NCBI GenBank assembly: GCA_964459835.1
Contig: CAYWPA010000002.1
Span: 48,711 to 112,710, forward strand
Direction: 5' to 3'
Length of the DNA: 64,000 bases
Origin: an uncultured Methanosarcinales archaeon
GTDB lineage: Archaea; Nanobdellota; Nanobdellia; Woesearchaeales; UBA12501
The translations under genes and the position numbers were made by a program. Each line of letters opens with the position of its first letter. Within the stretch, counting starts at the first letter, position 1. Below the pieces are notes generated by a model. The model was not told the origin of the DNA, made no database searches, and worked only from the letters and a program-made list of their open reading frames with translations. Below are positions 44,633-47,803 of this stretch, one piece after another.

Positions 44633-47600
44633 ATGGCAGAAGAATACACAGCAAAGGAAATCCAGGTCCTAGGCGGGTTAGAAGCAGTTAGAAAAAGGCC
44701 TGGAATGTACATTGGAACTACAGGGCCAGCAGGCCTGCACCATTTAGTTTACGAAGTAGTAGACAATTCAGTAGATGAAGCCATGGCAGGATACTGCACA
44801 GGCATTATTGTTGTAATCCACAAAGATAATTCTGTTTCTGTTTTAGACAATGGGAGGGGGATTCCAGTAGACCTGCATCCGCAGTTTAATGTTCCTGCAA
44901 TAGAGATTGTAATGACAAAACTTCACGCAGGAGGAAAGTTTGACAGAAAAACATACAAAGTAGCAGGAGGATTGCATGGAGTAGGAGTAAGCGTTGTAAA
45001 CGCCCTATCAAAAAAACTGCATGTAGAAATAAGAAGAAACGGAAAGATTTACCAGCAGGAATACATAAACGGAGAGCCACAGGAGTTAAAAACAATTGGA
45101 GAGTCATCACAAACAGGAACTTTGGTAAGGTTCTGGCCTGATGAAACTATTTTTGAAACAACTGAATTCCATTTTGAGACGCTTTCAGCAAGGCTAAGAG
45201 AATTGGCTTTCTTGAACAAAGGAATAAAAATAAGCATAAAAGACGAAAGAGACGGAAAGGAAAATGTATTCCAGTACGAAGGAGGGCTAAAAAGCTTTAT
45301 AGAGTTCCTGAACAAAAACAAAAACCCATTGCATGAGGTAATTTATTTTGAAAAAGAAAAAGAAAGCATTGTTCTGGAAATAGCAATGCAATATAATGAA
45401 GGCTATCAGGAAAATGTATTCTCATTTGCAAACAATATCAATACAAAAGAAGGAGGAACACATTTAATTGGGTTTAAGACAGCCATAACAAGGTGCTTTA
45501 ACAAGTATGCAGAATCCCATAACATAAAAGAAAGGCTGACAAGCGATGATGTAAGGGAAGGACTGGCAGCAGTTATCTCAGTAAAGCTTCCTGAGCCGCA
45601 GTTTGAAGGGCAGACAAAGACAAAATTAGGAAATTCTGCTGTAAAAGGGATTGTTGATTCTTTGGTTTCAACAAATTTAGGAGCATTTCTGGACGAAAAC
45701 CCAGGCATTGCAAGAACAATTCTGGACAAGGCAATAAATGCGGCAAAGGCAAGGGAAGCAGCAAGAAAGGCAACTGAATTGACAAGAAGAAAATCTGCAT
45801 TAGGCGGAGGCTCTTTGCCGGGGAAATTAGCAGACTGTTCAAATAAAGACCCTGCTAAATGCGAATTGTATATAGTTGAAGGAGATTCAGCTGGTGGTTG
45901 TTTTTCTGGGGATACAAAAGTTGCTTTGGCAGATGGAAGAAACCTCAGCTTTAAAGACCTTATTAAAGAAGACAAGGAAGGAAAAAAGAATTATTGCTAT
46001 ACAATTAGCAAAGATGGCTCCATTGGAATTGGATTGATAAAAAATCCAAGAAAAACAAAAGTTAATGCAGAAGTTATTAAGATCATTTTAGATAGTGATG
46101 AAGAAATAATATGTACACCGGACCATAAATTTATGATAAGGGATATTTCATATGTACAAGCAAAAGAGCTGAACAACGATATGAGCCTTATGCCTTTGAA
46201 TAGAAAACTATCAAAGATTGAAGGAAGAATAACTATTGCAGGCTATGAAATGGCACTTTGCCCAAAATCACATAAATGGATTTTTACCCACATGCTTGCT
46301 GATAAGTTCAATATTGAACATGGGGTATATGATACAGCTTTAGGGCCGCAAAAGCATCATATTGATTTTAATAAGCTAAATAACAATCCAGATAACATTA
46401 TACGAATGACAAGTGAAGAGCATCTTAAACTGCATGCTGAAGTACTTGAAAAAACCTTGCATAGGGATGATGTTAAGCAAAAAGCAAGGGAAGCCCATAA
46501 AAAGCCAGCATACAGAAAGAAAATAAGCGAGATGATGTCTACTCCTGAAATGAAAAAAATGCTTTCAGAAAGAGCAAAGAAGCAATGGAAAGATGAAGAA
46601 TACAAGGAATACATGATGAAGAAATACATGGGATTTTATGAAAATAATAAAGACTATAGGGAAAAACTTCTTGAACGTTTATATGGACAACAAAAAGATT
46701 ATTGGTCAAAAGAAGAGAATAGAAAATTACAATCTGAAAGAGTTAAGAAATATTTTGAAGAGCATCCAGAAGTAAGAGAGGAACTTCAAGAAAAGGCAAA
46801 AAACCAATGGGTTGATGAAGAGCTAAGAAAATGGAGAAGCAGTAAAACAAAAGAGCAATGGACAGATGAGTTTAGAGCAAAAAGGAAAAAAGCTTATGAT
46901 GAGACTTACTTTAAGAATACTGCTTCATTTATGAAAAAAATTCTGGAGAAAGATGGAACTCTGGAAAATTATGATATTGAAAGAGCAAAAGATAGGAACA
47001 ATAATTTTCTTAAGAAAAAAACCTTTGCTGAAAGATTCTTTGACAATGATGAAGAGGCAATGCTAGAGGCTGTTTTTGGCTATAACCATAAAATTAAGGA
47101 AATTGTTAAAATAAACCAAAAAATTGATGTTTATGATTTAGAAGTGGAAGGAACACATAATTTTGCTCTAGCTTCAGGCGTGTTTGTTCATAATTCTGCA
47201 AAGCAGGGAAGAAACAGGGAATTCCAGGCAATACTTCCATTGAGGGGAAAGATTTTGAATGTAGAAAAAGCAAGATTGAATAAAGTGTTCGCAAACAATG
47301 AGATTGTAACAATGATAACTGCCATAGGCACTGGGATTGGGGAAGAGTTTAATGTAGAAAAGGCAAGATACCATAAAATAATAATCATGACAGACGCAGA
47401 TGTTGACGGAGCGCATATCAGGACATTGCTGCTGACTTTCCTTTACAGGCAGATGAAGCCTTTGATAGAGTCTGGCTACATATACATAGCTCAGCCTCCT
47501 TTATACAAAGTTTCAAAAGCAAAACAAATAATGTATGTTTATACTGAAGAGGAAAAAGCCAAAGCTTTAATGGAGCTGGGAGAGGGAGCAAATATCCAAA

Positions 47601-47803
47601 GGTACAAAGGCCTCGGAGAGATGAATCCAGAGCAGCTTTGGGATACAACAATGGACCCCGAAAGCAGGACATTGTTGCAGGTAACGCTGGAAGATGTTGT
47701 TGAGGCAGATAAAATATTCACAATCCTGATGGGCGATGAGGTAGAGCCAAGGAGAAATTTCATAGAAGAAAATGCCAAAAAGGTAGTTAATCTGGATGTA
47801 TAA
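44633..47803 (+). CDS. gyrB: DNA gyrase subunit B, interrupted by an in-frame intein
   Basis: GHKL ATPase motifs, then EGDSAGG | intein | [26 protein letters not shown] (canonical GyrB EGDSAGGSAKQGRDR split) and a C-terminal Toprim. 1056 aa versus ~624 aa of extein. Confidence 0.9.
45899..47194 (+). mobile_element. GyrB intein (432 aa) with HNH-type homing endonuclease domain
   Basis: Block [11 protein letters not shown], block [12 protein letters not shown] motif [27 protein letters not shown], blocks [24 protein letters not shown] followed by +1 Ser. The insert holds an exact in-frame multiple of 3 nt. Confidence 0.85.

Follow-up and report, generated by a model that had tools for sequence, protein, structure and literature searches.

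The 64-kb stretch of archaeal DNA analyzed here (contig CAYWPA010000002.1, 64,000 nucleotides; hereafter, the window) carries a gene for the B subunit of DNA gyrase, gyrB, that is interrupted within its catalytic Toprim motif by an insert of 432 amino acids (aa). This insert is a canonical class-1 intein, as is seen from its initial Cys, its TxxH block, its terminal His-Asn pair, the Ser at position +1, its Hint fold, and the alleles of related loci. The domain in the middle of the intein is classified, from its sequence and a structural model, as a nuclease of the HNH (His-Me finger) type and not as a LAGLIDADG enzyme. Sequence comparison and modeling also make it very probable that the insert is a homing-type intein that splices, and they lean, with appreciably less assurance, toward a nuclease that is still active. 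The element is an ordinary member of a large GyrB intein family that has already been described.

The Intein Splits the Toprim Motif of GyrB

The gyrB precursor is encoded by one open reading frame (ORF) at positions 44633..47803 of the + strand, the strand on which all of the parts described below lie. It comprises 1056 aa plus stop, and the spliced product would be 624 aa. With the intein still in place, the precursor scored 980.8 bits on the gyrB equivalog model TIGR01059 (cutoff 882.4) and fell below the respective cutoffs of both parE models; the Pfam domains HATPase_c, DNA_gyraseB, Toprim, and DNA_gyraseB_C were all found in it. The N-extein (44633..45898; aa 1-422) consists of the ATPase and transducer domains and Toprim positions 1-12 and shows 55-70% identity to gyrB from Nanoarchaeota, Woesearchaeota, and Thermoplasmata metagenome-assembled genomes (MAGs). 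The C-extein (47195..47803), which is 60-80% identical to its relatives, supplies the rest of Toprim, with Ser as the +1 nucleophile, and the GyrB C-terminal domain, for which DNA_gyraseB_C matches at residues 985-1045. Between the two lies the intein (45899..47194; precursor residues 423-854), which runs in frame from Cys1 to Asn432 over 1296 nucleotides (nt), or 3 x 432. It splits the motif as EGDSAGG|SAKQGR, and the Pfam Toprim profile is accordingly broken between positions 12 and 13, the match picking up at position 13 right after the intein. Since the insert lies inside the catalytic EGDSAGG motif, only after its removal can the protein work as a gyrase. For annotation, this is a single gyrB with an intein in it, and labels such as pseudogene, fusion, or pair of genes would be wrong.

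A sequence-only reading of the window had described a 432-aa intein at the EGDSAGG|S site of GyrB with a Cys start, a TxxH block, a VHN end followed by Ser, and a length that is an exact multiple of 3, and we found every one of these features. The intein begins with Cys1 of CFSGDT directly after EGDSAGG and ends in GVFVH431-N432, after which comes Ser +1; block B reads T73-P-D-H76. Among 65 homologues, C72, T73, P74, and H76 are nearly invariant, as are V411, Y412, D413, E415, T419, H420, N421, H431, and N432 toward the C terminus. Pfam Intein_splicing scored 68.5 bits, and the models of the N-terminal (TIGR01445) and C-terminal (TIGR01443) splicing regions scored 45.6 and 30.3 bits against cutoffs of 24.5 and 15.6, respectively. 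The same reading held that an insert devoid of the terminal Cys and Asn and of the block motifs would be a mere insertion domain; Cys1, TPDH, and the final His-Asn are all present.

We built an AlphaFold model of the intein on its 65 homologues, with a mean predicted local distance difference test (pLDDT) score of 89.5. The N-terminal lobe of the Hint domain (45899..46210; intein aa 1-104), which holds Cys1 and block B, is all beta in this model, with pLDDT above 90, and the C-terminal lobe (47084..47194; intein aa 396-432), with blocks F and G, is the part recognized by TIGR01443. In a Foldseek search, these beta-rich ends matched the crystal structures of the DnaE, NrdJ-1, RecA, and DnaB inteins with E-values of 1e-6 to 1e-4, as expected of a Hint fold. 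The intein sequence itself gave weak Hint-domain matches alone (NrdJ-1 and DnaE inteins; E about 1e-3), and there was no GyrB intein structure among the solved structures searched with it. The GC content of the intein is 32.3% vs. 39.7% and 40.4% in the exteins, and its higher AT content is due in part to the Lys/Glu-rich helical region described below.

A Putative HNH Nuclease Nested in the Intein

Residues 105-189 of the intein (46211..46465) make up a domain that we assign to the HNH nucleases by its conserved His and Asn residues, its PHROG matches, and its modeled fold. The HNH string spans residues 153-179. Six of its residues, H153, H154, N162, N166, H175, and H179, do not vary among 22 diverse members of the family, and in the 65 homologues each is conserved to at least 90%. 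The "HNH endonuclease" profile PHROG 7545 matched intein residues of about 114-204 with an E-value of 2.3e-8, and three further HNH profiles (PHROGs 21964, 15471, and 59) matched at E < 1e-3. In the model of the intein as well as in a second model of the middle domain alone (pLDDT 93), strands 151-154 and 167-170 and helix 172-185 form a beta-beta-alpha core (46349..46453; intein aa 151-185) with pLDDT of about 90. When the middle-domain model was searched against the viral structures of BFVD, the top match was a Hint-domain protein of Bacillus phage SP-15 (E of 4e-5 over 294 columns), and most of the other top-50 matches were phage HNH or homing endonucleases with probabilities of 0.97-1.00.

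A LAGLIDADG endonuclease was rejected, as no LAGLIDADG family of Pfam matched the intein even at E <= 1; in other inteins, LAGLIDADG_3 was readily picked up with this library. With the invariant His and Asn residues, the PHROG match, and the modeled beta-beta-alpha core, the earlier assignment of the endonuclease to HNH rather than LAGLIDADG is thus borne out. Mean identity across phyla is 55% in the nuclease domain and 45% in the helical domain that follows it, and the conservation of both domains argues for selection on endonuclease function.

A Helical Repeat Region Follows the Nuclease Domain

Residues 190-395 of the intein (46466..47083) form an all-helical, Lys/Glu/Trp-rich repeat region, as judged from the model and from self-comparison. 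The region is modeled as an uninterrupted run of helices with pLDDT of 90-98, has a high content of Lys, Glu, Arg, and Tyr, and carries a net charge of +8. Nearly invariant among the 65 homologues are W230, W269, W304, W312, and W321, together with several Arg, Gln, and Tyr residues. Comparison of the profile with itself revealed internal repeats of about 37 aa (214-250 vs. 288-322; hhalign probability 97%, E of 6e-11), and off-diagonal self-matches reach 88%. The core motif of the repeat is [KR]-x-Q/x-W-x-D/x-x-x-[YLF]-[KR], with sites at KKQWKDEE (227), KDYWSKEE (266), KNQWVDEE (301), and KEQWTDEF (318). The sequence-only reading had counted three K-x-QW-x-DEE repeats; the repeats as such are real, being the units of about 37 aa in the profile self-comparison, but the pattern stands in part, with KKQWKDEE and KNQWVDEE fitting it and KEQWTDEF ending in DEF.

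A search of the helical region against Pfam at E <= 10 returned nothing credible and no NUMOD family, and no solved structure matched the region. The string S-x-E-x-K-x-x-L-S-x-x-A-K within it resembles NUMOD3, an identity that is unsupported given the lack of any Pfam NUMOD match at this threshold. By analogy with other HNH homing endonucleases, the helical region probably binds DNA and gives the endonuclease its target specificity. It may even amount to a modular array for DNA recognition that is peculiar to this family of intein endonucleases and has yet to be described, although we hold this idea to be tentative and rather unlikely. Repeat content varies within the family: the repeats are mostly deleted in the 313-aa intein of a related gyrB locus (L013, below), and there seem to be more copies in a GyrA paralogue. 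If the region were such an array, this variation could retarget the family between gyrB, gyrA, the phage portal gene, and other genes. To our knowledge, the endonuclease of this family has never been characterized biochemically or structurally. The Trp-rich helical module is without a described family, and a structure of it with DNA could be of modest interest to studies of homing-endonuclease specificity.

Full, Eroded, and Empty Alleles in Related Loci

Using the N-extein, we gathered 80 related gyrB loci and mapped both exteins onto each. The junction was scorable in 78 of them; the other two contigs stop short of the C-extein. The gene is uninterrupted in 75 of the 78, the exteins abutting with a 0-nt gap at exactly this codon boundary; the intein-less alleles that the sequence-only reading had suggested looking for in relatives are thus the prevailing form. 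The closest locus (L001, a Nanoarchaeota MAG), with 70% and 80% identity to the N- and C-extein, respectively, is itself without the intein. Over 48 nt of the joined extein junction, the window DNA and the empty alleles agree at 27-42 positions.

Three loci carry an insert. In L007 (Woesearchaeota), an intein of 432 aa, 63% identical to that of the window, begins directly after the N-extein, and the contig stops at the last intein codon. The intein of L013 (Nanoarchaeota; positions 7267-8205) is 313 aa long, having kept the HNH part and lost most of the helical region, and that of L019 (Woesearchaeota; 4424-4891) is a mini-intein of 156 aa without an endonuclease. A single site that is empty in some relatives and holds a full, an eroded, or a minimal intein in others is the classic picture of a homing cycle.

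Distribution and Possible Horizontal Spread of the Family

The intein alone retrieved 963 proteins at E <= 1e-3. Among the 120 matches listed, all those with an extein domain or a source name were GyrB, the best of them 56-58% identical over the full length, and several were already named "intein-containing DNA gyrase subunit B." Named sources among the listed matches were Patescibacteria (Parcubacteria), Nanoarchaeota, Methanosarcinales, Thermoplasmatota, Halobacteriales, Chloroflexota, Omnitrophota, and many cyanobacteria, and 20 complete sequences were full-length homologues lying between the (D/E)SAGG and SAK motifs. When only the endonuclease part was used as the query, exhaustive searching with HMMER yielded 644 cluster representatives, of which 49 had E <= 1e-30. 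Sampling of the more distant members turned up the same nuclease inside inteins whose hosts are GyrA, a T4-like portal protein, and an AAA-type protein. The novelty of the element is low, because HNH in the GyrB intein is an established family (PMC5714182) with hundreds of homologues; a literature search pairing the GyrB intein with HNH by name found no paper.

One further locus, from a Woesearchaeota MAG (L062; 4014-7835), has an empty gyrB directly followed by an intein-bearing gyrA. The gyrA intein (about 4341-5735) is 465 aa long and 36% identical to the window intein over the full length, and it occupies the site HGHGNFG|C...FVHN|SVDGDPAG. From this GyrA paralogue of the HNH intein, it follows that the same endonuclease family targets both gyrase subunits.

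The intein and its exteins differ in their nearest relatives. The best intein matches among those listed are evenly spread over bacteria of the Candidate Phyla Radiation (CPR; Parcubacteria, Nealsonbacteria, Kaiserbacteria) and DPANN archaea, at 53-58% identity, whereas the nearest relatives of the exteins are almost all labeled archaeal, mainly Nanoarchaeota and Woesearchaeota. This split suggests that the intein may have moved horizontally across domains among co-occurring ultra-small organisms. As such, it adds one more data point on the spread of the GyrB intein between CPR bacteria and DPANN archaea that share habitats.

Proposed Mechanism and Alternative Explanations

For the window intein, we infer both splicing and DNA cleavage. 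Once the precursor has been translated, its two Hint lobes (intein aa 1-104 and 396-432) would come together in one fold and excise the 432-aa insert. The chemistry would start with an N-S acyl shift at Cys1, helped by Thr73 and His76 of block B, and proceed through transesterification to Ser +1, cyclization of Asn432 with the help of His431, and an O-N shift. EGDSAGG would be rejoined to SAKQGR to give an intact Toprim catalytic domain, and GyrB would depend on splicing. The HNH nuclease, guided by the helical repeats, would cut an intein-less gyrB near the EGDSAGG|SAKQGR codons, as other homing inteins do, the expected target being the fused extein junction DNA, GTTGAAGGAGATTCAGCTGGTGGT|TCTGCAAAGCAGGGAAGAAACAGG. 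Repair from an intein-containing copy would then spread the intein.

The endonuclease could, however, be on its way to decay. The intein would then be competent in splicing, with an inactive HNH endonuclease, and would be fixed in this lineage and retained solely because a working gyrase requires precise splicing, as in the late "decay" stage of the homing cycle. We consider this explanation unlikely, although several observations speak for it and against an active HNH nuclease. The closest relative found is merely 63% identical, with no sign of a recent invasion and no evidence of recent spread, and decay products, the 313-aa intein of L013 and the 156-aa intein of L019, occur at the same site. 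Position 151, a commonly conserved His in most relatives, is Gln in the window intein. Moreover, Pfam HNH_3 (PF13392), which matches intein residues 153-175, scored 18.6 bits with the intein and 21.2 bits with the domain alone, below its gathering cutoff of 24.8, so that, by Pfam's own criterion, the intein is not an HNH_3 member. It belongs to the HNH_3 family by virtue of its homology to members that do match: 25 of the 65 aligned relatives matched HNH_3 at E <= 0.01, the best at 1.1e-5.

A further point against the proposed mechanism comes from solved structures. In a Foldseek search of the Protein Data Bank (PDB) with the middle-domain model, the best match, I-HmuI (1U3E), was not significant (E of 1.9), and neither were those ranked after it, Cascade-HNH, IscB, and I-PpoI. 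The sequence profile of the HNH region found no nuclease among solved structures and gave chance matches to arabinofuranosidases alone. We also know of no GyrB-intein HNH nuclease that has been demonstrated to cleave DNA. Nevertheless, the HNH core has every one of the six His and Asn residues that do not vary in the family, the full length of 432 aa has been kept, both the nuclease and the helical domain show conservation between distant phyla, and the model is confident throughout. On balance, we favor a homing-type intein whose nuclease would probably still be active.

Compatible with such a homing intein is the proposal that it also serves as a posttranslational switch on gyrase, through conditional protein splicing in response, for example, to redox state or temperature. 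Inteins cluster in the active sites of replication proteins, and here the insertion lies inside the catalytic EGDSAGG, where the unspliced precursor must be inactive; the use of Cys1 as nucleophile would also suit a switch. However, the sequence bears no sign of regulation, 75 of the 78 scorable related gyrB loci do without the intein, and any homing element is expected at conserved active-site motifs, such DNA targets being conserved. We regard a switch as very improbable. Finally, we give practically no credence to a GyrB insertion domain that does not splice, which is refuted by Cys1, TxxH, HN, Ser +1, the above-cutoff scores of TIGR01445 and TIGR01443, the Hint fold, and the split Toprim, or to a LAGLIDADG-type intein, for which no family match appeared at E <= 1; nothing was found in favor of either.

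Source Organism and Neighboring Genes

The source archaeon is of the Woesearchaeota/Nanoarchaeota type of DPANN, as seen in the archaeal genes that neighbor gyrB and in the homologues of LonB and of the extein. Archaeal genes around gyrB include LonB (TIGR00764), class-I lysyl-tRNA synthetase (LysRS; TIGR00467), Pth2, an ATP-dependent DNA ligase, and a Hel308-like helicase. Every named top homologue of LonB is Candidatus Woesearchaeota or Nanoarchaeota, at 73-79% identity, and the closest relatives of the extein are labeled Nanoarchaeota or Woesearchaeota, except for several MAGs labeled "uncultured Methanosarcinales." According to a survey devoted to the enzyme, most Woesearchaeota, Pacearchaeota, and Micrarchaeota possess gyrase, and its authors, in assembling their data set, took out 61 archaeal GyrB sequences that contained inteins (PMC9348778). 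Gyrase in this archaeon, which the sequence-only reading had called notable, is therefore not so.

Upstream of gyrB lies lonB, and the convergent class-I lysS lies 22 nt downstream. A synteny search found none of LonB, LysRS, Pth2, and CorA around gyrB in the 80 related loci. No gyrA was found within the 64-kb window by tblastn with a Woesearchaeota GyrA extein, and a scan of the gyrB region for promoters and terminators did no better than on shuffled sequence.

Elsewhere in the window, Rfam detected at 7283-7434 (+) a tRNA of 152 nt that ARAGORN missed; its anticodon arm is enlarged by an insert of about 79 nt, presumably an archaeal tRNA intron. This tRNA adjoins a tRNA-Asn (7196-7270) and overlaps the mechanically assigned GTG start of an ORF at 7402..9015. 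The latter ORF (7402-9015, +; 537 aa) encodes a Hel308/Ski2-like helicase that covers profile positions of about 218-710 of 739, an N-terminal RecA-like part of about 215 aa being seemingly missing. The ORF just upstream (6163..6756) encodes a histidine-phosphatase-family protein and not the missing half. Split or truncated helicase genes are known in some DPANN and Nanoarchaeota genomes, and the ORF at 7402-9015 may be one such gene. Two further ORFs, at 32346-34370 (-) and 37133-39052 (-), of 674 and 639 aa, had no NCBIfam match at E <= 1e-10.

Comparison with Known Systems

The Ssp GyrB intein of Synechocystis shares its host protein with the window intein, and its C-terminal GVFVHN and Ser +1 are identical. 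It is 435 aa long and also starts with CFSGDT. Dalgaard et al. reportedly described the first HNH motif in an intein in 1997, and the intein concerned is said to have been Ssp GyrB. The cyanobacterial GyrB inteins in our set (P0047, P0064, and P0072) are full-length homologues with 47-51% identity to the window intein. Ssp GyrB is a naturally occurring intein of the bifunctional kind: it contains a putative endonuclease domain, it splices in E. coli, and it has been engineered into the S1 and S11 split forms (PMC3620165); the C-intein of the S11 form consists of the six residues GVFVHN, followed by Ser (PMC2794532). The two inteins differ in their hosts, a cyanobacterium there and a DPANN archaeon here, and are about 50% identical; splicing of the window intein is a prediction.

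In the classification of Jablonska et al. (2017), "Gyrase subunit B intein / dCTP deaminase intein" is family 22 of the His-Me finger nucleases, corresponding to PF13392 HNH_3, with 84 bacterial and 7 archaeal members (PMC5714182). The window intein has the same type of domain in the same host protein. It differs in scoring under the HNH_3 gathering cutoff, its membership coming through homology to relatives that match.

I-HmuI (1U3E) and the phage HNH homing endonucleases (PHROGs 7545, 21964, 15471, and 59) have in common with the window nuclease the beta-beta-alpha-metal core and the HH...N...H motif. Those enzymes are free-standing or intron-encoded and bind DNA by NUMOD or helix-turn-helix modules, whereas the window nuclease, not significantly similar to 1U3E in structure, sits within a Hint domain and is followed by a family-specific Trp-rich helical repeat that has no Pfam match. 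Inteins of GyrA (L062, P0323, and P0326) and of the T4-like portal protein (P0324), together with the SP-15 protein, share with the window intein the whole Hint-HNH-helical-repeat-Hint architecture. They occupy other host genes and sites, such as GNFG|C...N|SVDGD in GyrA, and the L062 GyrA intein, from a reading of its sequence, apparently has more copies of the W motif.

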